From Promethearchaeota archaeon (lineage in GTDB: Archaea > Asgardarchaeota > Lokiarchaeia > Sigyniarchaeales > SOKP01): a stretch of DNA of 64,000 bases. Positions 1,972-15,382 of this stretch are shown piece by piece. Both the position numbers and the translations under genes were made by a program. The stretch covers positions 32,001 through 96,000 of the forward strand of contig JAHPZJ010000010.1 in assembly GCA_019058245.1 (NCBI GenBank). The letters are read 5' to 3'. Numbering within the stretch: position 1 is the first letter of the stretch; every line of letters starts with the position of its first letter. Under the pieces are notes generated by a model that saw only the letters and a program-made list of their open reading frames with translations, searched no databases and was not told the origin of the DNA.

Positions 1972-4900
1972 ATGGAAATAAAAATTCAAGGTGCAAAAGA
2001 AAACAACTTAAAAGATGTTAATGTAACCATCAAAGATGGACATACTGTGGTAACAGGTGTTTCTGGATCGGGGAAAACATCACTCATTTTTGATACATTA
2101 TATAAGGAAGCTAGACGTAGATTTTTAGAAGCATTTTCAGTCAGTAAAGAAGAAATAAAACTTAATCCTGCAAATGTGAGGTCAATCACTGGTCTAGGGC
2201 CTACTATCGCACTTAGTCAAAATGTGCTTAATCGAAATCCTAATTCTATTTTAGCATCGGCGATAGGTCTCATACCTTTATTAAAAATTCTATATGCTAG
2301 ATTTGGCGACAGGACATGTCATGTTTGTGGTTCTAAATTATCTGTATTAAAAGAAGATGAAATAATCGCGAAAATTGAGGGATTAAGGCATATCGAGCCC
2401 ATTACAATATCAGCTCTTTTAGTAAAAAAATCAAAAGGGAGTCATCAAACCTTAATTAGCCTTTTGAAAAAGAAATTCAGTTCTGAAACTCTCTTGGTAG
2501 ATGGAAAACCCATAATTTCAAAATTAAATCCAAAAAAACCTCATGATATTCAGATTCAAATTGGTCAAATAACAACTAGCACTGATATTAGTGAGATTAG
2601 AGATATAGTTGAAACTATCTCTTCATTAGGAGCAAATTCATTAATAATTAAGGGAAAAACATCTAATTTTCGAATTTCTCGAGTACCTGTATGTATGGAA
2701 TGCGGTACTTGGTACGGAGAGCTTGAACCAATGCATTTTAAGAAAAATTGTCCTTATTGTAAAGGAAAAGGGTGCAAGCAATGTAATCAAACAGGATATC
2801 ACCCCCTTGCATCTAATGTTACTTGGGAGGGTATGTTATTTCCCGAGATTCTAACAAAATCAGTTGGAGAACTAGTAACTTATTTCTCTAAAGAAGAACT
2901 CACAATTACAGCTAGGCTAATACAAGAAATAAAAAGGCGATTAATATCATTAAATTCTGTAGGATTAGAATATTTAGAATTAGATCGTGTTTCACCAACA
3001 TTATCTAGAGGAGAATCTCAAAGAGTTCGACTAGCTATAGCTTTATTGAGTGAACTAGAAGATATTACTCATATCCTTGATGAACCAACGATTGGTCAAC
3101 ATCCATCTGACGTCGCTCGATTACTGCCTATATTTCAGAATCTTGCTGGTCCGATAATTTATATTGAACATGATCGGCAAGCTGTTACGTATGCAGACAA
3201 TGTTATTGATATTGGTCCAGGAGCTGGAAGAGAAGGAGGTGAAATTATATTTACTGGAACTCCTGCAGAGTTATGGAAATCAGATACGTCTACAGGTAAG
3301 TTTTTTAGCTTGAGAGAACGGGTTATAATTCCCCAACATAGAGCTAAACCTCAACTTTTTTTAATAATTGAGAAAGCTTATAGGCATAATTTGAAAAATA
3401 TTAATGTTAAAATTCCCTTAAACCGACTAACAGTTATCACAGGTGTATCTGGTTCTGGAAAAAGTACATTGGTAGAAGATGTTTTATTTAGTTCATTAAA
3501 AAAAAAAGAACCAATAGGTTGTAATAAAATTACTGGGGTAAAGGTGATACCTATCATGGTAGATCAAGGACCTATAGGGAAAAATCCAAGATCAAATCCA
3601 GCTACTTACACTAAAATTGCTGATGTTATTAGAAAGCTATTTGCTAAAGCTACTGAATTTAAAGCTACGTTCTTTTCATTCAATACTCCAGAAGGCCAAT
3701 GTCCAACATGTAGTGGGATGGGTTCCCTCGAAATTAAGATGAGATACTTACCCTCTAATTGGATCACCTGTCCAGACTGTAATGGTCAGAGGTTTTCTGA
3801 AGAGATACTCGAGGAAAAAGTTCAGTTTGAAGATGATGAGTATTCTATTGCAGAATTCTATGATCTACCAATTTCAGAAGTTGAAAAAATTTTTGATAAA
3901 GAAAGAAGATTGACTGTTGGAGATCTTAATTCAGCAAGACAAATGTTGAAAGCGCTTAATGATATAGGATTAGGATATCTCTCCTTAGGGCAACCTTCTC
4001 CAACATTATCTGGGGGTGAAGCTCAGCGAATTAAATTATCAAAATATCTTGGAAAAAAAAATTTAAAAGATCATTTAATAATTCTTGATGAACCTTCAAC
4101 AGGATTACACTCTCAAGATTTAGCGGGGTTATTGACAATTTTAGATAGATTACTCCACATTGGAGCAACAATTGTGATCGTAGAACATAATATTGATATA
4201 ATTAGGGCTGCTGATTGGATTATAGACCTTGGTCAAGGTTCAGGACCAAATGGTGGTAAAGTTATGTATCAAGGTCCTTTAGATAAGTTCATGGAAACTG
4301 AAGAATCTCTTACTGCTCAAGCTTTAAAATTGGAAGAAAGTGTTACTCCATTAATCAAGAAAAAAAAGAAAATAAGAAAGAGTTCAGAACACATTATCAT
4401 TCAAAATGCTCACGTTCATAATCTTAAGAATGTAAATGTCAAAATCCCAAAAAAGAAATTTACTGTAGTCACAGGAGTTTCAGGGTCGGGGAAATCTAGC
4501 CTAATAATGGATACACTTGAAATGGAAGCAAGACGCAGAAATTTAGAAACTTTATCAATGTATGAAAGACAAAGTACCAAAGAAACTACCGAAGCGTTAG
4601 TAGAAAATATTCAAGGGTTAGGGATAACAGCATCAATAATACCAGAAAAGATTATCCATGGTTGGTTTTTAAACCTTCGAAATACCATAGGGAGGGTTAC
4701 AGATATAACACTCCATTTAGCGAATATATTTTCATATATGGGAGAATTATCGTGTCCTAAATGTAGTCAGAAAATGAAAAGAGAGGAAAAATGGTATTGT
4801 AAAAAGTGTAATATCTCATTACCTCTTGCTAAACCACGACATTTTATTTCTACAAATTATTCAGCAGCTTGCCTTAAATGTCATGGTGTTGGTTCATTTC

Positions 4901-6843
4901 AAGTTCCTAATCCTAATAAATTAATAGTGCACCCCAACAAACCTTTATGTAACGGTGCCATGTACTCTCCAGGTTTTTTTCCAAAAGGATATTTATGTAA
5001 ACCATATAATGGTGGATATTATATAGTTCAAGCTTTAGCAACTCGTTATGGTTTTGATCCTTTTTCAAAACCTTGGAATGAAATATCAAAAGAAGCAAAA
5101 GATGCATTTTTATTTGGAGATAAAGAAGTTTTAGATGTTGAATTTGAGAATAAGAAAGGTCAAATCTCTAGAAAATTAATTCAGTACCAAGGCTTTTATG
5201 GACACTGGTTAAGAGATTGGGATGTTGGAGGTACATATACAGATAATAAAACTTGTGATGAATGTAATGGTTTGAAATTACGTCCCCAATATCTTGCTAT
5301 CTCATTGGAAGGTTATAATTTACCTCAGATGTGCAATATTTCTTTGAACAAATTATATGGAATATTAAAAGAAGTAAAGATGGCAGATAATATTGCCGAT
5401 TTTGTAAAGAACAGTTATGAGATTATTTTAACACGTTTGAAATTTTTACTTAAAATTGGATTAGGTTATATTACTCTAAATCGTGTTTCTGAAAGTTTAT
5501 CTGCAGGAGAAGCTCAGAGAGTTCGGTTAGCTGGATTATTGGGTAGTGATTTGACATCTTTAACAATTTTACTTGATGAGCCCAGTAGAGGTTTATCTCC
5601 TCCAGAAATTGAAAATTTATTAGACATATTAAAAGAATTAAGGGATAACGGAAATACAGTCATAGTTATTGAACATGATCCTTTAATTATTAATAATGCT
5701 GATTATATAATAGATATGGGCCCTGGAGCGGGTGTAAATGGTGGAAAAATTGTTGCAAAAGGAACTATAGAGGATATAATAAAAGCAAAAACTATTACGG
5801 GAGACTGGATGAGTGGAAAAAAAAAATTTGAAGTATCTAAAAAACACCGAGAACCTAAAAAATGGCTAAAGATCTATGGTGCAAAAGAAAACAATTTAAA
5901 GGGGGAATTAATTGAGATTCCTCATAAATTATTAGTAGGATTATGTGGGGTTTCTGGTTCAGGAAAAAGTACTCTAATAATTGATACTTTGGGAAGAGCC
6001 TTGGTACCTATTAAGCATACAACATCAGTATCTCGAGAACCTATTGACCCGGGAGAATATGAGAAGATTGAAGGTACCTTACCTCAGACAATATTAATCG
6101 ATCAAACAAAAACTAAAATCGGAAGTCCTCTTAAATTTTTAGGATTAGAATCTCCAATAATAAAAATATTTTCTGAGACTGAAGATGCCAAAATTTTAGG
6201 TTTAGATGAAAAAAAACTAAAAAAGAGATGCTCTGTTTGTAAAGGGAGAGGTTATATCAAGATAGATATGAAATTTCTTCCCAATATTATTGAGACTTGT
6301 GAAACTTGTAATGGATCGGGGTATCAAATTGAAGCATGGCAAGTTCATTTTAAAGGAATTTCCTTGCCTGATATTAATAATTTAACTATTGAGGAAGCCT
6401 ATGAATTATTTGAAGAATATGAATCCATTTCTACTAAATTAAATTATGCTAAAAAAGTAGGACTACAATATTTACAACTAAATCAGCCTGCTCGCACTCT
6501 TTCTGGAGGTGAAGCTCAAAGACTTAAGATAGTAAAAGAATTATCTAAAAATTCTAAAAAAGAAACACTATATATCTTAGATGAACCGACTATCGGTCAA
6601 CACTTAGAAGATGTTTCTAAGCTAATTAATACTCTACATTTATTAATCGATAATGGCAATAGTGTAGTTGTTATTGAACATCATCCATATGTATTGGCTT
6701 CTTGTGATTGGCTATTAGAGTTAGGGCCAGGAGCAGGACCAGAAGGAGGCCATATAATTGCACAAGGACCACCTAGTGAAATAGCTAAATTAAACACTCC
6801 AACAGCACCATATTTAAAAGAAGTATTAGAGGGAGGAAAATGA
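1972..6843 (+). CDS. uvrA: Double-length UvrA-like protein (four ABC ATPase domains)
   Basis: 1623 aa with four GVSGSGK(S/T) Walker A motifs, four LS(G/R/A)GE(S/A)QR signatures with LDEP, and multiple CxxC pairs. Confidence 0.88.
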   Translation: MEIKIQGAKENNLKDVNVTIKDGHTVVTGVSGSGKTSLIFDTLYKEARRRFLEAFSVSKEEIKLNPANVRSITGLGPTIALSQNVLNRNPNSILASAIGLIPLLKILYARFGDRTCHVCGSKLSVLKEDEIIAKIEGLRHIEPITISALLVKKSKGSHQTLISLLKKKFSSETLLVDGKPIISKLNPKKPHDIQIQIGQITTSTDISEIRDIVETISSLGANSLIIKGKTSNFRISRVPVCMECGTWYGELEPMHFKKNCPYCKGKGCKQCNQTGYHPLASNVTWEGMLFPEILTKSVGELVTYFSKEELTITARLIQEIKRRLISLNSVGLEYLELDRVSPTLSRGESQRVRLAIALLSELEDITHILDEPTIGQHPSDVARLLPIFQNLAGPIIYIEHDRQAVTYADNVIDIGPGAGREGGEIIFTGTPAELWKSDTSTGKFFSLRERVIIPQHRAKPQLFLIIEKAYRHNLKNINVKIPLNRLTVITGVSGSGKSTLVEDVLFSSLKKKEPIGCNKITGVKVIPIMVDQGPIGKNPRSNPATYTKIADVIRKLFAKATEFKATFFSFNTPEGQCPTCSGMGSLEIKMRYLPSNWITCPDCNGQRFSEEILEEKVQFEDDEYSIAEFYDLPISEVEKIFDKERRLTVGDLNSARQMLKALNDIGLGYLSLGQPSPTLSGGEAQRIKLSKYLGKKNLKDHLIILDEPSTGLHSQDLAGLLTILDRLLHIGATIVIVEHNIDIIRAADWIIDLGQGSGPNGGKVMYQGPLDKFMETEESLTAQALKLEESVTPLIKKKKKIRKSSEHIIIQNAHVHNLKNVNVKIPKKKFTVVTGVSGSGKSSLIMDTLEMEARRRNLETLSMYERQSTKETTEALVENIQGLGITASIIPEKIIHGWFLNLRNTIGRVTDITLHLANIFSYMGELSCPKCSQKMKREEKWYCKKCNISLPLAKPRHFISTNYSAACLKCHGVGSFQVPNPNKLIVHPNKPLCNGAMYSPGFFPKGYLCKPYNGGYYIVQALATRYGFDPFSKPWNEISKEAKDAFLFGDKEVLDVEFENKKGQISRKLIQYQGFYGHWLRDWDVGGTYTDNKTCDECNGLKLRPQYLAISLEGYNLPQMCNISLNKLYGILKEVKMADNIADFVKNSYEIILTRLKFLLKIGLGYITLNRVSESLSAGEAQRVRLAGLLGSDLTSLTILLDEPSRGLSPPEIENLLDILKELRDNGNTVIVIEHDPLIINNADYIIDMGPGAGVNGGKIVAKGTIEDIIKAKTITGDWMSGKKKFEVSKKHREPKKWLKIYGAKENNLKGELIEIPHKLLVGLCGVSGSGKSTLIIDTLGRALVPIKHTTSVSREPIDPGEYEKIEGTLPQTILIDQTKTKIGSPLKFLGLESPIIKIFSETEDAKILGLDEKKLKKRCSVCKGRGYIKIDMKFLPNIIETCETCNGSGYQIEAWQVHFKGISLPDINNLTIEEAYELFEEYESISTKLNYAKKVGLQYLQLNQPARTLSGGEAQRLKIVKELSKNSKKETLYILDEPTIGQHLEDVSKLINTLHLLIDNGNSVVVIEHHPYVLASCDWLLELGPGAGPEGGHIIAQGPPSEIAKLNTPTAPYLKEVLEGGK

Positions 6844-7874
6844 CCTGGATTCCACTTTTATTGACAGATCCATCATATTGTTTACGATTTTTGGTCTTAA
6901 CTGAATTGTTACACTTACCTCAAGATGATAATGAAGTCATTGAATTGTCAGAGATGCGGGAATCAGATCCACTTGTTAATGAATTATTCAAGCTCCAAAA
7001 AACTAATGGAGCATGGGATTCTTTTGGTGTAAATCGAATATCTTCAAGCGACAACCTTCAAATAACTTCTATGGCATTACAGAGATTAGGTTACTTCGGA
7101 TTTGATTCAACTCATCCAATGGTGCAGAAAGCAGCAGATTTTCTCTTTTCAAAACAGCTTGAAGATGGTTCTTGGCCAATGCCAGGCAAAAAACTACTTA
7201 CTGATGAAGAAATTGGATATCAGATGATGCCTGTTCAAACAGCAATTCCTCTTTTAGGTTTAGTTATGTGTGGATACTATACAGATCAAAGAGTTAAGAA
7301 TGCATTTGATTGGCTAATGAAACAACGTTTAGAAGACGGTGCATGGCCAGTAGGGATATCTGCAGGTAATTATGGAGGTATTGCGGGATACCGCCGTCTT
7401 GCCCATTCAAGATGGGGATGTCGATCAAATACTACAGCTGTGCTTACTTGTCTTGCTTATCATCCAAAATATAGCAAAAGTAATGAAGCTAAGAGAGCAC
7501 TTGATTTAATACTTGGAACTGATTCAAAGTTAAGAAGTAATCTTGGTTTTATAATAGCACGGCTAATTGGATTAGAAAGAAACCTTGGAAATATTACATT
7601 TATGGCAAAATTTGATATAGCCCATATATTAAATTTATGTTGGAGAGTTGGAGGAAGTAAAAATGATGAAAGGATTTCTGATTTGATCAACTTTGTAAAA
7701 TCTGAACAAGGAGAATATGGTCTATGGGATTATATAGCACATCCAAAAGCCACACGCTGGTTAACTTTTGATCTTTTATGTTCATTATCTAAATTAGAAA
7801 CTCAAGAAGACTGGATAAGTTTAGAACCACATACTCCTTTTAGAGCATATCCTAAGAAAATTAAACGGTTTTAA
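6840..7874 (+). CDS. Prenyltransferase/squalene-oxidase repeat (alpha/alpha barrel) protein
   Basis: QW-like repeats (LQKTNGAW, KQLEDGSW, QRLEDGAW, EQGEYGLW). The start overlaps the uvrA stop (ATGA), implying translational coupling. Confidence 0.7.
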   Translation: MTWIPLLLTDPSYCLRFLVLTELLHLPQDDNEVIELSEMRESDPLVNELFKLQKTNGAWDSFGVNRISSSDNLQITSMALQRLGYFGFDSTHPMVQKAADFLFSKQLEDGSWPMPGKKLLTDEEIGYQMMPVQTAIPLLGLVMCGYYTDQRVKNAFDWLMKQRLEDGAWPVGISAGNYGGIAGYRRLAHSRWGCRSNTTAVLTCLAYHPKYSKSNEAKRALDLILGTDSKLRSNLGFIIARLIGLERNLGNITFMAKFDIAHILNLCWRVGGSKNDERISDLINFVKSEQGEYGLWDYIAHPKATRWLTFDLLCSLSKLETQEDWISLEPHTPFRAYPKKIKRF

Positions 7875-8464: not shown

Positions 8465-8848
8465 AAAATTTTCTGTTTTTAATAAATTTAGAATTAAATT
8501 ATATTACATTATATTTACAAAAATTTAAATGTAATTTTAAGAGATAAAAATTGTAAGAAAATGTCCAAATTTATCTCGTTAACAAATTTGAATGAATTTT
8601 ACGAGATTAAATTTGAACGGATATAATTATGAAAACATCACTCCATCATATACATTAATCTGCTTCTAATCTTAATAAAGATTTCAAGGTTTATCAAATT
8701 ATGTTTAAAGTGATAGTTTTATTTAATTTGAAAATAATAGGAGCTCGAAATGTAATGATTTTAATTGGAAAATCAAAAATTAATTTATTCGATCAAGCAT
8801 CTAAGGAGGAGGAGATATTCATACTTTGGGTATTAAAACCTAATTCAG

Positions 8849-8863
8849 AGAAAAATTTATAAA
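8849..8863 (+). promoter_or_regulatory. Putative BRE/TATA promoter of the leu leader/operon
   Basis: AGAAAAA-TTTATAAA about 50 nt upstream of the leader ATG. The background is AT-rich, so this is tentative. Confidence 0.45.
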
Positions 8864-8914
8864 GTTATAATCAATCTATTTTTATAATCATAAATTCTAA
8901 TAGGATTATAAATT

Positions 8915-9016
8915 ATGAAAGCTACTCAAAGTCTACTTATTTCTAGTAATAAAATAAGTTTGAGAGGTTTATTTCCATTAGAATTATTGAGTTTGTTATT
9001 ACTCTTATTATTATAG
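8915..9016 (+). CDS. Putative leu operon leader peptide (33 aa, MKATQSLLISSNKISLRGLFPLELLSLLLLLLL)
   Basis: Hand translation: 14 of 33 residues are Leu, with 7 consecutive Leu codons just before TAG. TAGGA lies upstream, and the ORF ends 87 nt before leuA. Confidence 0.75.
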   Translation: MKATQSLLISSNKISLRGLFPLELLSLLLLLLL

Positions 9017-9019
9017 AGC

Positions 9020-9095
9020 GCCCTATTCCTTTCTAGAGCGTATTTTTCTTCTTGAAAGTATAAGGGCTATATATTTTAAACAAAATTATAATAGG
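9020..9095 (+). promoter_or_regulatory. Putative attenuator structure
   Basis: An imperfect stem GCCCT..CTTTC / GAAAG..AGGGC (9020-9067) encloses the U-rich tract TATTTTTCTTCTT. CCTATT (9022-9027) is also complementary to AATAGG (9090-9095), the likely leuA RBS. Confidence 0.5.
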
Positions 9096-9103
9096 TTAAA
9101 AAC

Positions 9104-10726
9104 ATGGTTGGTAAAAACGATATTGCGGTTTCCGAAATGATGGAAAAAATTAGAGGATCCCTTATCCTCCCTGAGAGAGCATATTTTTTTGATACAACGC
9201 TCCGTGATGGGGAACAAACTCCAGGTATAAGTTTCACTCATAAAGAAAAGCTATCTATTGCTCAAGCTCTTAATGAGTTGGGAATTGATATCATAGAAGC
9301 GGGATTTCCTATTACATCTCAGGGAGATTTTGAAGCTTGTAGAGATATTGCGAAAATGGGTTTAGATTCTGAAGTGATGGGTTTAGCTAGAACAGCAAAG
9401 CCTGATATAGATAAAGTTATAGAGGCAGATATGGATAGTATACACCTATTTTGTGCCACTTCAGAATTGCATATGAGAGAAAAACTTCAATTAACTAGAG
9501 ATGAAGTCATAGAAAGAATAAGAGAAACCGTCTCATACGCTAAAGAACATTATTCTATTGTACTATTTTCAGCTGAGGATGCAACTAGATCAGATTTAGA
9601 TTTTTTAATTAAAGCTAACTTAACTGCTGTTGAGAGTGGGGCTACACGAATAAATATACCTGATACTGTAGGTACTATTTCTCCAGTAGCTTTTGGATAT
9701 ATTATACGGAAAAATTATGACGCCTTACCTAAAAATATTCGTATTGCGGCTCATTGTCATAATGATTTTGGTCTTGCTGTAGCAAATACTATTGCTGGGT
9801 TTGAAAATGGTGTTTCAGAAGCTCAAACAACAATTTTAGGCTTGGGTGAACGAGCAGGAAATGCATCTTTTGAAGAAACTTGTATGTCTCTTTATGCTCT
9901 ATATCAAATACCTATGAATATTAAAACAACAAAGATTTTTCCTACAGCTAAATTAGTAGAAAGTTTTTGTGGTGGGAAAGTCAGAATTGGTCGATTACAA
10001 CCCCTTATAGGGCAGAATGCATTTGCTCACGAAGCAGGTATTCACGCACACGCGATGCTACAACATGCGCGAACATATGAACCCATTACACCAGAATTAA
10101 TAGGAATTCACCGTACCGATGATGTGGAAGCAATTATAAAGCAATCAATAAAACTTGGAAAACACACAGGTGGTCATGCTCTTAAGGCTAAAATTAATGA
10201 CTTAGGTATTAGCCCTACTGATGAACAATTTACGAAAATAAGGCAACATGTAAAAAGTCTTGGTGATAAGGGGCATGAAGTTTCTGAAGAGGATTTTTTA
10301 GCAATTGTTAAAGATGTCATGGGGGAAATACCAAAAGAAGAACAATATGTTACTCTTGAAGAGTTAACTGTTTTGACTGGATCAGTTACACCTACATCAA
10401 CAGTTCGATTAAACATCAAAAATAATGGAGATATATTGCAAAAAGTAGCATCAGCAACGGGAGTAGGGCCTGTAGATGCCTCATGTAATGCAATTGTTAA
10501 ATGCTTTAAACCGATGAGTAAGATTGTACTTTTAAATTTTCAAATTGATGCTATTACTGGTGGAACTGAAGCATTAGGTCATGTTACCCTTGAAATCATG
10601 GATGTTGATAGTAATATAGTAGTCAAAGCTAGTGCGATTCATGAAGATATTGTTATGTGCTCTGTTCTATCTTTGATAAAAGGATTAAATCTAATTGTCA
10701 AGAAAAAGAGCATAACCTTAAATTAA
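9104..10726 (+). CDS. leuA: 2-isopropylmalate synthase (LeuA/CimA family)
   Basis: DTTLRDGEQ, HCHND and GLGERAGN motifs, a C-terminal regulatory domain (GVGPVDA), and first position in the leuCDB cluster. Confidence 0.85.
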   Translation: MVGKNDIAVSEMMEKIRGSLILPERAYFFDTTLRDGEQTPGISFTHKEKLSIAQALNELGIDIIEAGFPITSQGDFEACRDIAKMGLDSEVMGLARTAKPDIDKVIEADMDSIHLFCATSELHMREKLQLTRDEVIERIRETVSYAKEHYSIVLFSAEDATRSDLDFLIKANLTAVESGATRINIPDTVGTISPVAFGYIIRKNYDALPKNIRIAAHCHNDFGLAVANTIAGFENGVSEAQTTILGLGERAGNASFEETCMSLYALYQIPMNIKTTKIFPTAKLVESFCGGKVRIGRLQPLIGQNAFAHEAGIHAHAMLQHARTYEPITPELIGIHRTDDVEAIIKQSIKLGKHTGGHALKAKINDLGISPTDEQFTKIRQHVKSLGDKGHEVSEEDFLAIVKDVMGEIPKEEQYVTLEELTVLTGSVTPTSTVRLNIKNNGDILQKVASATGVGPVDASCNAIVKCFKPMSKIVLLNFQIDAITGGTEALGHVTLEIMDVDSNIVVKASAIHEDIVMCSVLSLIKGLNLIVKKKSITLN

Positions 10727-10760: not shown

Positions 10761-12032
10761 ATGGATTTAACAATTAGTGAAAAAATCATAAGAGATCATT
10801 GTGAGCAAAAGGATCTTTCTGCTGGAGATTTTGTTTTAGTAAAAATTGATAAATGTTTAGGTAATGATATAACTGCACCAAAAGCTATAGAAGTTTTCGA
10901 AGAAATTGTTGAGGGAACTGAAAGAAGTGTTTTTGATCCAAGTAAGATAATACTTACACCAGATCATTTTACACCAAATAAGGATATTGCTTCGGCAATA
11001 CAGTGCAAAATTTTAAAAGATTTTGCAAGGAAGTACCACATTCAACACTATTATGAAGTAGGAAAAGTAGGAATTGAACATTGTCTTCTTCCCGAACAAG
11101 GATTAATTGCTCCGAGTGAGTTAATTATCGGTGCTGATTCTCATACTTGTACATATGGGGCATTAGGTGCTTTTTCTACTGGTGTTGGCTCAACTGATCT
11201 AGGTGTGGCAATGGCTCTTGGAGAATGTTGGCTTCAAGTACCTGAAACCTTGAGATTCAAATATACAGGTCAGTTAAATAAATGGGTTTCAGGTAAAGAT
11301 TTAATCTTGTATACTATTGGTAAAATTGGAGTTGATGGGGCAACATATAAGGTTATGGAATTTACAGGTGAAATTATCAACAACCTTTCTATGGCAAACC
11401 GTTTTACTATGTGTAATATGGCTATAGAAGCAGGCGCAAAAACAGGGTTCATTTTTCCAGATAAGATTACTGAACAATATCTAAAAAGTGTAGGAATTTC
11501 TAAATTTAAAACCTATGAGAATAATAATACAAAATATCATGAAAGTATTGAGATTGATTGTAATACTATTGAACCTCAAATAGCTCTTCCACATTTACCA
11601 AGCAATACAAAACCAATATCTGAAGTACAGGATATGCATATTGAAATTGATCAAGCTGTAATTGGATCTTGTACCAATGGACGAATAGAAGATTTACGGA
11701 TAGCAGCAAAAATAATGAAAGACAACAAGATTCACCCTAGTGTAAGATGTATTATCATTCCAGGAACTCCTACCATTCAATTTGATGCTCTTAAAGAAGG
11801 ATTAATTGAAATTTTTCTTAAAGCTGGAGCGATTGTATCTCCACCCACATGCGGTCCATGTTTAGGAGGTCATATGGGAATCCTTGCTCCTGGTGAAAGA
11901 GCAATTTCAACAACAAATAGAAATTTTATGGGAAGGATGGGACATAAAGATAGTGAAGTCTATTTATCAAATCCAGCGATTGCAGCAACTTCTGCCTTAA
12001 AAGGTTTTATTGCATCTCCAGAAAGTATGTAA
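10761..12032 (+). CDS. leuC: 3-isopropylmalate dehydratase large subunit
   Basis: GADSHTCTYG, IGSCTNGR, CGPCLG and STTNRNF motifs. Confidence 0.92.
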   Translation: MDLTISEKIIRDHCEQKDLSAGDFVLVKIDKCLGNDITAPKAIEVFEEIVEGTERSVFDPSKIILTPDHFTPNKDIASAIQCKILKDFARKYHIQHYYEVGKVGIEHCLLPEQGLIAPSELIIGADSHTCTYGALGAFSTGVGSTDLGVAMALGECWLQVPETLRFKYTGQLNKWVSGKDLILYTIGKIGVDGATYKVMEFTGEIINNLSMANRFTMCNMAIEAGAKTGFIFPDKITEQYLKSVGISKFKTYENNNTKYHESIEIDCNTIEPQIALPHLPSNTKPISEVQDMHIEIDQAVIGSCTNGRIEDLRIAAKIMKDNKIHPSVRCIIIPGTPTIQFDALKEGLIEIFLKAGAIVSPPTCGPCLGGHMGILAPGERAISTTNRNFMGRMGHKDSEVYLSNPAIAATSALKGFIASPESM

Positions 12033-12050: not shown

Positions 12051-12569
12051 GTGAAAAAAATGAAAGGTAAAGTAATTAAATATCCTCAAGAGAATATTAA
12101 TACTGATTTGATAATTCCTGCTCGATACTTAGTAGATATAAATCCTCAATTTTTAGCGGAGCACTGTATGGAAGATTTAGATATGGAATTTCATAAGAAT
12201 AAAAATAATCTTCAAGCAACAATTCTCGTCTCAGGTTCTAATTTCGGTTGCGGATCAAGCCGAGAACAAGCACCAATAGCCTTGAAAGCTACGGGAATAG
12301 AATTAATAATCGCTCCCAGTTTTGCACGTATATTTTTCAGAAATGCTATTAATATTGGTCTTCCAATTCTTCAATTTTCTGATATTGATGCTTTTAATAG
12401 TGGAGATCTGCTAGATATTGATTTTGGAAAAGGAGTTATAGAAAATATAACTACTAGTAAATCATATTCTTTTAGCAAATTTCCAGCTTTTTTACAGAAA
12501 ATAATTAAAGTTCACGGCTTAATAAATTTTGCAAGAGAACAAATTGCTAATTCAGAAGAGGGATCATAA
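12051..12569 (+). CDS. leuD: 3-isopropylmalate dehydratase small subunit
   Basis: NINTDLIIP, NFGCGSSREQA and SFARIFFRNAINIG motifs. The true start is probably ATG 12060 because the called GTG lies inside the RBS. Confidence 0.92.
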   Translation: MKKMKGKVIKYPQENINTDLIIPARYLVDINPQFLAEHCMEDLDMEFHKNKNNLQATILVSGSNFGCGSSREQAPIALKATGIELIIAPSFARIFFRNAINIGLPILQFSDIDAFNSGDLLDIDFGKGVIENITTSKSYSFSKFPAFLQKIIKVHGLINFAREQIANSEEGS

Positions 12570-13633
12570 TGAAAAAAATAATTGCAGTCACTCATGGTGA
12601 TGGATGTGGATTAGAAGTAGTAGAAGAAGGGATAAAGATTCTAAAAGCTATTTCTGAATATAGTGATTTTGATTTTGAATTTATAAACGCTCCAGCTGGA
12701 GGTAAAGTTTGGAAAGATTGTGGTGAAAGTCTTCCAGAGAAAACATTTGAAATTATTAAGAATTCTGATGCTTTATTATTTGGTGCTATTGGGCTTCCTG
12801 ATTTACCCCCTGGAATTGCTGAAACTGCAATCTTAAAGATAAGACAAGATTTAGATCTATACGTGAATATGAGGCCAATTAAGTTATATAATCCTCTACG
12901 TGATAGATGCCCACTTAGAGATGAATTTATAGGAAAAGGTATTGATTTCACTATTATTAGAGAAAATACAGAGGGAATATATAAAGGAATAGGAGAAATA
13001 TCAGATGAGAGGGCTGAAAGTGTGATGCTTTATACTAAAAAAGGGTGTGAAAGAATTATGCGATATGCTTGTGAATTTGCAAAAAAGAATGGTCATAAAA
13101 AAATTACATCTGTAGATAAAGCAAATGTTATAAAAGCAAGTCAATTTTGGCGCAATATCTTTCATAAAATTGGGGAAGATTATCCCGATTTAGAGAAAGA
13201 GGATGTCTATATTGATGCTTTTTGTCAATGGTTAATTCGTGCTCCTTATTCTTACGAAACAGTAGTTACAGGCAATATGTTTGGTGATATTACTAGTGAT
13301 GAAGGTGCTTTTCTGATTGGTAGTTTAGGAATGGCCGCCAGTGGAAACATAAATCCAGGAAATGTTTCAATGTATGAACCAATACATGGTTCGGCTCCTG
13401 ATATTGCTGGAAAAAATATAGCTAATCCAATAGGTACTATTTTAAGTATAAAATTGATGATGCAGGAATCGTTTAATTCGCCAGAAATAGGATTTTTAAT
13501 TGAAAAATCTGTAGAAGAAGCCCTTAACGAAGGAAGAACCATAGATATTGAGAATAAAGCTTTTAAGACTCTAACTACGAGAGAAATGGGGGATCTAATA
13601 GTAAAAAAGTTGATAAACTTGCTTAAAAAGTAG
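12569..13633 (+). CDS. leuB: 3-isopropylmalate dehydrogenase
   Basis: IRENTEG, VDKANV, NMFGDITSD and YEPIHGSAPDIAG motifs. Confidence 0.9.
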   Translation: MKKIIAVTHGDGCGLEVVEEGIKILKAISEYSDFDFEFINAPAGGKVWKDCGESLPEKTFEIIKNSDALLFGAIGLPDLPPGIAETAILKIRQDLDLYVNMRPIKLYNPLRDRCPLRDEFIGKGIDFTIIRENTEGIYKGIGEISDERAESVMLYTKKGCERIMRYACEFAKKNGHKKITSVDKANVIKASQFWRNIFHKIGEDYPDLEKEDVYIDAFCQWLIRAPYSYETVVTGNMFGDITSDEGAFLIGSLGMAASGNINPGNVSMYEPIHGSAPDIAGKNIANPIGTILSIKLMMQESFNSPEIGFLIEKSVEEALNEGRTIDIENKAFKTLTTREMGDLIVKKLINLLKK

Positions 13634-14164: not shown

Positions 14165-15382
14165 GTGACAATATTTAAATATTATCGTTTTTATTTTAAC
14201 TATAAATTAATATTAAAAAAAAGAGGTGGTTTTAAAATTTCAGTCAACGGGGATTTTAAAAATAATAGACCCATTGTTATAGATAATGGGACTGGTATAT
14301 CAAAAAATGGATTTGGAGGAGAAGATCAGCCACGCTCGGTTTTTCCAACTGTCATTGGTAAACCAAAGTATGGAAACATCATGCCTGATGTAAAGAATTA
14401 CAGCCGAGAATGGTATGTTGGGGAAGAAGCAATGGAATTAAAAGGGATCATGAATCTACAATTTCCTATTGAACATGGAGTTGTTGAAGATTGGCCAGCA
14501 ATGGAAAGGATATACCATTATACATTCTATACAGATTTAAGAATAGATCCTTCAGAATTTCCTGTATTGTTAACAGAAGCTCCATTGAATCCTAGATCAA
14601 ATAGAGAAAAAATGGCAGAAATAATGTTCGAAACATTCAATGTTCCTGCTCTTTATATCGCAACACAAGCAGTTTTATCACTATACGCTTCTGGTCGAAC
14701 TACTGGGTGTGTAGTAGATATAGGGGATGGAGTTGCACATATTGTGCCAATTTTTGAGGGTTTTGCTCTAAGTCATGCGATACAGAGAATAGATCTAGCG
14801 GGAAGAGATGTTACAACATATTTACAGAGATTATTACGTCAAAATGGATATTCATTTTATACATCAGCAGAGAAACAGATTGTTAGAGATATTAAGGAAA
14901 AATTATGCTATGTTGCTCTTGATCCTGAAAAAGAGATTATGCTCTCAAATAAAGTATCAGGGATGGCAAAAAATTATATGCTTCCAGATGGAGAGACTAT
15001 TACAATTGGACTTGAAAGATTCCTAGCTCCAGAAAGTCTATTCAATCCTTCTGTAGTAGGAAAGGAATTGCCTCCTTTAGATGAAGTAATCGTTGGTGCG
15101 ATTTCTGATTGTGATGTTGATCTTCGAAGAGATTTATATAGTAATATTGTACTCTCAGGTGGTTCCACCATGTTTCCGGGTATTAAAGAGAGATTAACTA
15201 GAGAGTTAAAAGAACAACTTCCTGAATCCATTGATGTAAAGATTATAGCACCGCCAGAAAGAATGTATTCTGTATGGATTGGTGGATCTATTTTGAGTTC
15301 CTTAAAGACTTTTAGTAGAATGTGGGTAAGTCGAAGAGATTACAAGGAAATGGGACCTCAAGTTATCCATCGATGTTTTTAA
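14165..15382 (+). CDS. Actin / actin-related protein (Asgard type)
   Basis: [80 protein letters not shown] and C-terminal IHRCF. The real start is probably downstream of 14165 (ATT at 14237 after GAGGTGG). Confidence 0.95.

Follow-up and report, generated by a model that had tools for sequence, protein, structure and literature searches.

Organization of the leuACDB locus

The window analyzed here is a 64,000-nucleotide stretch of contig JAHPZJ010000010.1 from a 76%-complete Promethearchaeota genome with a G+C content of 29%. A previous reading of the letters alone (the sequence-only reading) had assigned the DNA to an Asgard lineage. This was borne out, as nearly all close relatives of its leuA are labelled Promethearchaeota (Lokiarchaeia) and an actin-family gene (PF00022), an Asgard signature, lies at 14165-15382 (+). 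Elsewhere in the window, at 1972-7874 (+), a UvrA-like ATPase of double length (1623 aa) overlaps a protein of 344 aa whose repeat domain resembles squalene-hopene cyclase. The leucine biosynthesis operon and the elements upstream of it are as follows.

8847-8863 (+): BRE and TATA box (TTTATAAA at 8856-8863); a box of this kind is present in 48/55 loci
8893-8905 (+): 5' arm of helix P1, containing the leader RBS TAGGA (8901-8905); pairing tests and folding
8915-9016 (+): leader ORF of 33 codons, 14 of them Leu; ORF listing and comparison with related leuA loci
8974-8985 (+): 3' arm of helix P1, leader codons 20-24; pairing tests and folding
8978-9013 (+): putative sensor codons, with 10 Leu among the last 12 and seven consecutive at 8993-9013
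9020-9067 (+): stem-loop P2, beginning 4 nt beyond the leader stop, with a pyrimidine-rich 5' arm and a purine-rich 3' arm
9043-9053 (+): U/C-rich tract within P2, a candidate termination or cleavage signal
9092-9097 (+): leuA RBS, TAGGTT; its AGG is nearly invariant among loci, ~11-13 nt 5' of the start
9104-10726 (+): leuA, 2-isopropylmalate synthase, 540 aa; NF002085 above cut-off
10761-12032 (+): leuC; TIGR02083 above cut-off
12051-12569 (+): leuD; TIGR02087 above cut-off
12569-13633 (+): leuB; TIGR00169 is the best match, just below cut-off, and the operon context agrees

The uncalled 33-aa ORF with 14 Leu picked out by the sequence-only reading is present as described, ends in TTG TTA TTA CTC TTA TTA TTA TAG and stops 87 nt upstream of leuA. 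The RBS-like TAGGA and the TATA-like box reported with it were likewise found, at 8901-8905 and, as a BRE/TATA-like element, at 8847-8863.

The leucine-rich leader is conserved among relatives

Recurrence of a Leu-rich uORF upstream of leuA in relatives had been named as a check, and was assessed in 59 distinct leuA loci of at least 64% identity (families f1 and f2). Such an ORF was found in 56 of them, with 6-11 Leu in the last 12 codons; of the three exceptions, two have N gaps or repeats upstream and one (L018) seems to have no leader. The 55 complete leaders span 31-39 codons, and their stop lies 86-101 nt upstream of leuA in 53/55 loci. Over its N-terminal two-thirds, the peptide sequence varies freely among loci, and Leu conservation peaks at the last four codons (206/220). 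Six types of Leu codon are used in the leaders, with TTA dominating the run (71% vs 45% in leuA). When the intergenic uORF candidates of this genome were ranked by terminal single-residue enrichment, the leader ORF came first of 2881. Given this rank and its conservation in 56/59 loci, the leader ORF exceeds chance expectation.

The Leu leader was absent from 45 more distant leuA-like loci (25 from other Lokiarchaeia families, Hadarchaeota, methanogens and two bacteria, and 20 from other Asgard families), some of which may be operon-internal genes. The closest non-Asgard matches of this leuA are archaeal, hence there is no sign in the sequences of a recent bacterial origin for leuA and its leader. 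One 94%-identical relative (L002; G024:C7:560528-562144) has a TAA listed within its leuA match yet a 542-aa open frame; this TAA is probably the terminal stop.

An archaeal promoter and a helix able to bury the leader RBS

The BRE/TATA box is mostly situated 55-64 nt 5' of the leader start in the 48 loci that carry it. Median PWM scores were 14.3 at the leader promoter, a value that scores the training boxes themselves, and -0.5 in the spacer between leader stop and leuA. An internal promoter just before leuA was rejected, as this spacer holds no box comparable to the leader promoter, and a sigma-70 promoter scan was set aside as inapplicable to an archaeon. From the position of the box we infer a transcription start near 8884-8890 and therefore a 5' UTR of ~30 nt that bears the RBS. 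The leader RBS scored -3.7, compared with +0.1 for shuffled sequence. Together, on computational grounds, the start codon, RBS, conserved frame (55/55) and shared upstream promoter indicate that the leader ORF is translatable.

Helix P1, which the sequence-only reading had overlooked, starts where the transcript is predicted to begin and joins the 5' UTR to middle-to-late leader codons (8893-8905 with 8974-8985; z -2.6). Its own partners paired at -13.1 kcal/mol compared with -8.3 kcal/mol after swapping between loci, and beat synonymous recoding in 55/55 loci. On the alignment, 78% of cells could pair, as opposed to 26-52% in slid registers. In folding models, P1 can bury the RBS of the leader itself.

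A conserved stem-loop follows the leader stop codon

The hairpin enclosing a U-tract that had been proposed at 9020-9067 was confirmed by folding (-14.6 kcal/mol, z -2.2; U-tract at 9043-9053). Across the leuA loci, P2 starts +1 to +5 past the stop in 54/55 cases and ends at about +48 to +61, with a median z of -3.8, and its own arms pair at -12.4 compared with -8.4 for arms swapped across loci. Of the covarying hairpin looked for in relatives, the stem is conserved, and compensation at the level of individual bases is modest, with 9 double changes keeping a pair and 10 breaking one. The permutation tests of pairing overstate the support, as the genomes are related to one another. RNAalifold found no consensus on either MAFFT alignment at default settings, and with RIBOSUM settings it recovered P1 (-13.5) and only the base of P2. 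Alignment-free tests were relied on for this reason, the arms of P2 slipping in register. A TAGAGCG duplication previously noted at 9014 and 9034 does exist here, but occurs in just 4/55 loci.

A P2-like stem followed merely 3/120 and 2/120 ordinary gene ends, which are unstructured and U-rich, while the stem of His, ileS, cimA and argJ leaders begins within ~10 nt of the stop. At +30 to +39, U+C makes up 73%, compared with 53% at ordinary ends, and this stretch is pyrimidine-rich in all six leader sets. P2 encloses a U4 tract in 39/55 loci and has none in 16/55. P2 is followed by an A-rich spacer of ~35 nt and then the leuA RBS. No U-tail was present after P2 in the 55 leuA loci (4.5 T in the following 12 nt), 45/55 loci had no U4 tract after +60, no intrinsic terminator was found before leuA on the + strand, and the leader region matched no Rfam leader family. 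From the sequence, the earlier suggestion that ribosome position governs exposure of the U-tract is plausible. As a separate observation, the purine-rich 3' arm of P2 (9055-9067 in the window, and in relatives) binds the canonical anti-SD at -6.6, compared with -4.4 for the real leuA RBS, which may be a by-product of its C/U-rich 5' arm.

A second branch of the sequence-only reading, in which the P2 5' arm (CCTATT) alternatively sequesters the leuA RBS (AATAGG), did not hold up. Both motifs occur where they had been placed (9022-9027 and 9090-9095), but partners from the same locus paired no better than partners from different species (-4.46 vs -4.57 kcal/mol; 5.0 vs 4.8 bp), and their pairing probability in free RNA was 0.005. 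A duplex between the Leu codons and the leuA RBS was rejected as well (-4.4 vs -4.7 after synonymous recoding, with no gain over shuffled or swapped partners), as was pairing of the leader with the P2 3' arm, which shows no conservation. No conserved, mutually exclusive partner for P2 was found in the leuA loci, though P2 is predicted to respond to ribosome position.

Leaders for other amino acids match the downstream pathway

A look for analogous Trp, His and Thr leaders in this genome had been suggested as a check; those for Trp and His were found, and none stood out for Thr. In the same enrichment ranking of 2881 candidates, the Trp leaders of trpD and of a GNAT-methyltransferase gene ranked 7 and 14, a His leader before hisIE ranked 5, an Ile leader before ileS ranked 16 and an Arg leader before argJ ranked 26. 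An additional Ile leader, before cimA, was seen in another genome. The uORF scan of this 76%-complete genome gave no conspicuous leader for Thr, Phe, Met or Lys, and no leader precedes its own leuS or metS. Comparable leaders were also absent before 30 ilvD-family genes, many of which are operon-internal or maybe encode other dehydratases. Across relatives, Trp leaders are the widest-spread type, with five families, while Ile leaders precede 18/18 close ileS loci and 25/30 cimA loci, His leaders 16/30 hisIE loci and Arg leaders 3/6 argJ loci. A scan blind to the downstream gene picked L before leuA in 54/59 loci, W before trpD in 10/16, H before hisIE in 16/30, R before argJ in 3/6, and I before ileS in 16/20 and before cimA in 23/30.

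A (TTA)n repeat encodes Leu, Ile or Tyr depending on the frame, which allowed the reading frame itself to be examined. As the loci had been picked by their cognate frame, it is the non-cognate frames that constitute the test. In leuA leaders, an ATG and a stop directly after the run were present in the Leu frame in 55/55 loci and in the other two frames in 0/55 and 0/55. Before ileS (18/18) and cimA (25/25), the same repeat sits in the Ile frame, and there only that frame has both an ATG and a stop adjoining the run. This shift of frame argues against a microsatellite, and since a frame that tracks the pathway is predicted neither by a DNA repeat nor by a trans-acting peptide, it counts against both.

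Several features particular to the other leaders were also observed. Most Trp leaders upstream of trpD (L044-L060) end W-R-x-stop, with the stop often within a small GC hairpin that is followed by a G-poor spacer of ~90-240 nt. The second Trp leader (L031:6800-8247, - strand; G000:C6:110799-112246) is located downstream of the trp operon, before a 385-aa GNAT and SAM-methyltransferase fusion, which suggests a Trp-linked role for the fusion. The inferred start of ileS appears to be ATT in 11/18 loci and ATA in 2/18, both Ile codons (L041:4874, - strand, G000:C31:10373, and L136-L153), directly preceded by a conserved AGGTGT; L139 has an ATG at that place. Such an Ile-codon start is possibly a second layer of control. 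In L136-L153, a hairpin loop ~30-45 nt past the Ile-leader stop contains CCACATCC with hardly any variation. This motif is complementary to GGATGTGG, located at the leader RBS, and is perhaps the counterpart of P1. In His leaders (L157-L169), a second conserved hairpin ends 1-2 nt 5' of the hisIE RBS (GGGGG).

A probable ribosome-read leucine sensor and its possible readout

Taken together, the comparative sequence evidence argues strongly for a Leu sensor that is read by the ribosome and acts in cis on leuACDB (probability roughly 0.9). It leaves little room for the explanation that the ORF is no sensor at all and either encodes a small, hydrophobic peptide that works in trans or reflects a chance (TTA)n in AT-rich DNA. 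The 29% G+C of the genome, the dominance of TTA in the run and the hydrophobicity of poly-Leu and poly-Ile tails would suit such an origin, but the N-terminal two-thirds of the peptide lacks conservation, six Leu codon types are in use, and the reading frame follows the pathway. Moreover, for five amino acids, His and Arg among them, the enriched residue agrees with the pathway encoded downstream, and comparable leaders do not occur before 30 ilvD-family genes or the genome's own leuS or metS.

The response of the leader RNA to translation was modeled by masking an archaeal-size ribosome footprint in silico and refolding; one Haloferax study gives a coverage of ~11 nt from the A site to the 3' edge (PMC7261190). 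The mean folding energy of Leu leaders was -20.3 when the A site was placed four codons upstream of the stop and -10.3 when the ribosome was placed at the stop, and His leaders responded alike (-19.9 to -8.9). P2 remained intact with the ribosome at least 2 codons 5' of the stop, while a stall at the very last codon reduced it to -12.3, compared with -17.7 one codon earlier. Because a stall at most Leu codons spares P2, it is best read as an ON structure. Termination in archaea depends on U-rich RNA and on aCPSF1, also known as FttA. The genome encodes aCPSF1 (TIGR03675 above cut-off), a homologue of eukaryotic CPSF73 that requires U-rich RNA delivered directly by the polymerase (PMC11616081); that a coupled ribosome would exclude it has been put forward as a hypothesis (PMC11616081, PMC8116511).

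Based on these models, we consider it an even chance that stalling keeps P2 intact and permits read-through, whereas a ribosome at the stop melts P2 and leads to premature termination. The first ribosome would load on the leader before P1 closes, and P1 would then limit re-initiation, restricting the decision to this first ribosome and so making it co-transcriptional. When Leu-tRNA is scarce, the ribosome would stall at the Leu codons, P2 would fold fully and RNA polymerase would reach leuA. When Leu is plentiful, the ribosome would reach the stop and cover the base of the P2 stem, and the pyrimidine-rich RNA, left untranslated, would become a site of premature termination, most likely via aCPSF1/FttA. 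P2 would thus serve as an anti-terminator against the default archaeal termination past a stop codon. Several points weigh against this anti-terminator readout: 16/55 loci have no U4 tract in P2, a ribosome at the stop is predicted to leave the inner stem at this locus standing, and single-strandedness averaged over +13 to +60 rises only from 0.35 to 0.43. In addition, a ribosome that stalls loses its coupling to the polymerase, and this loss could in itself promote termination, and the Trp leaders are laid out otherwise, with the stop inside a small hairpin.

The Trp layout would fit a switch of opposite sign, in which P2 is an OFF signal (an aid to pausing, termination or cleavage) that forms once the ribosome leaves, and a stalled ribosome protects the RNA in a tnaC-like manner. 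The Trp-leader hairpin takes in the last Trp codon, Leu conservation is highest at the last four codons (206/220), and the UUA run is itself U-rich (TTA 71% vs 45% in leuA), all of which this switch would accommodate. Yet P2 is destabilized only by a stall at the last codon (-12.3 vs -17.7) and most Leu codons lie further upstream; P2 also lacks a U-tail (4.5 T in 12 nt), and ordinary gene ends of this genome have no hairpin, which together make the opposite sign quite improbable. Slightly less probable again is an effect on RNA processing or decay, with a stalled ribosome or P1/P2 shielding the message from nucleases and no premature termination. P1 does start at the inferred transcript 5' end, and aCPSF1 has both endonuclease and 5'-3' exonuclease activity (PMC11616081), but no processing site was identifiable and the tight spacing of stop and P2 is equally explained by a co-transcriptional switch.

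Control at the level of translation appears unlikely; here the ribosome position on the leader would set access to the leuA RBS, to which the Leu codons, the 5' arm of P2 or its inner pyrimidine strand would pair, in the manner of the actinobacterial LEU element or the poly-Cys leaders of mycobacteria. No intrinsic terminator is present, and the predicted accessibility of the leuA RBS rises from 0.39-0.44 without a ribosome to 0.62-0.65 with a ribosome on the Leu codons; in four loci of family f2, a ribosome at the stop lowers it to 0.02-0.18. The P2 5' arm also pairs with the RBS region at -4.5, compared with -3.2 for shuffled sequence, but this pairing shows no co-variation, and that of the Leu codons is no better than recoded or swapped controls. 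Accessibility with the ribosome stalled or at the stop is little apart (0.65 vs 0.57), and hardly differs at all for ileS, cimA and argJ leaders, and direct action would reach the first gene only. Simple re-initiation, with ribosomes stopping at the leader and restarting at leuA, was rejected as the sole mechanism because starvation would then lower leuA output.

Comparison with known leader systems

Control by cognate codons in a leader is a textbook bacterial mechanism. On sequence grounds, the Asgard element is a real, conserved and amino-acid-matched leader system that would work like bacterial leader-peptide attenuation. It resembles the enterobacterial attenuators (leuL, trpL, hisL, ilvL) in that a short uORF in which cognate codons are clustered precedes a biosynthetic operon, with one leader per amino acid and a hairpin beside the stop (PMC2965389). 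Unlike these, it has no U-tailed terminator hairpin, no conserved 2:3/3:4 alternative and no Rfam match; it possesses an archaeal BRE/TATA promoter and an extra helix burying the leader RBS, and no sequence likeness was found. The actinobacterial LEU element before leuA (PMC1262725) shares the Leu-run leader and the lack of an obvious terminator, but the base stem between Leu codons and Shine-Dalgarno sequence that defines it is not conserved here. With both the intrinsic terminator and the stem between Leu codons and RBS missing, the Asgard element was assigned neither to the classical attenuators nor to the LEU element.

In E. coli tnaC and Salmonella mgtL, the position of the leader ribosome decides the access of Rho to pyrimidine-rich RNA. 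aCPSF1/FttA is the proposed archaeal counterpart of Rho in such control, an analogue rather than a homologue: the factor is an unrelated nuclease with a putative role here, and the Asgard leader has no conserved arrest peptide. In archaea, the Methanothermobacter trp operon reportedly combines the DNA-binding repressor TrpY with a two-codon Met-Trp minigene, a hint of Trp-codon sensing, whereas the leaders of the Asgard family span 17-54 codons and have conserved helices. The mycobacterial poly-Cys sORF 'ribulon' is likewise a set of cognate-codon sORFs that forms an amino-acid regulon read by ribosome stalling (bioRxiv 10.1101/834739). Those sORFs are leaderless and free a sequestered RBS, in contrast to the RBS-led 5' UTR of the Asgard leader, with a TATA box ~59 nt 5' of the ATG and no co-varying RBS duplex. 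No archaeal example of cognate-codon leader control was found in the literature searched, which took in few subscription journals, and the available text of archaeal Ribo-seq papers (including PMC7261190) mentions uORFs with no cognate-codon leader among them.

Judged from their leaders, these archaea probably use the ribosome to sense how well they are supplied with amino acids. More tentatively, and at somewhat below even odds, Lokiarchaeia may have evolved their own ribosome-read regulon (Leu, Ile, Trp, His and Arg), in which the leader ribosome gates aCPSF1/FttA via the hairpin at the stop codon. If true, such gating would represent attenuation without an intrinsic terminator as well as functional evidence for transcription-translation coupling in Asgard archaea. 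A leader set for five amino acids in close relatives of eukaryotes also provides short natural reporters, both for functional coupling in Asgard archaea and for competition between the ribosome and aCPSF1/FttA for nascent RNA, so far a hypothesis (PMC11616081, PMC8116511). Experimental tests are within reach, as one leader-bearing locus (L015) belongs to the cultured archaeon Ca. Lokiarchaeum ossiferum and Lokiarchaeal aCPSF1 functions in Methanococcus (PMC13675443).

Finally, a full leuA ortholog was present in just 11/36 genomes of the same genus, with trpD and argJ rarer still; the leaders go with patchily retained pathways.
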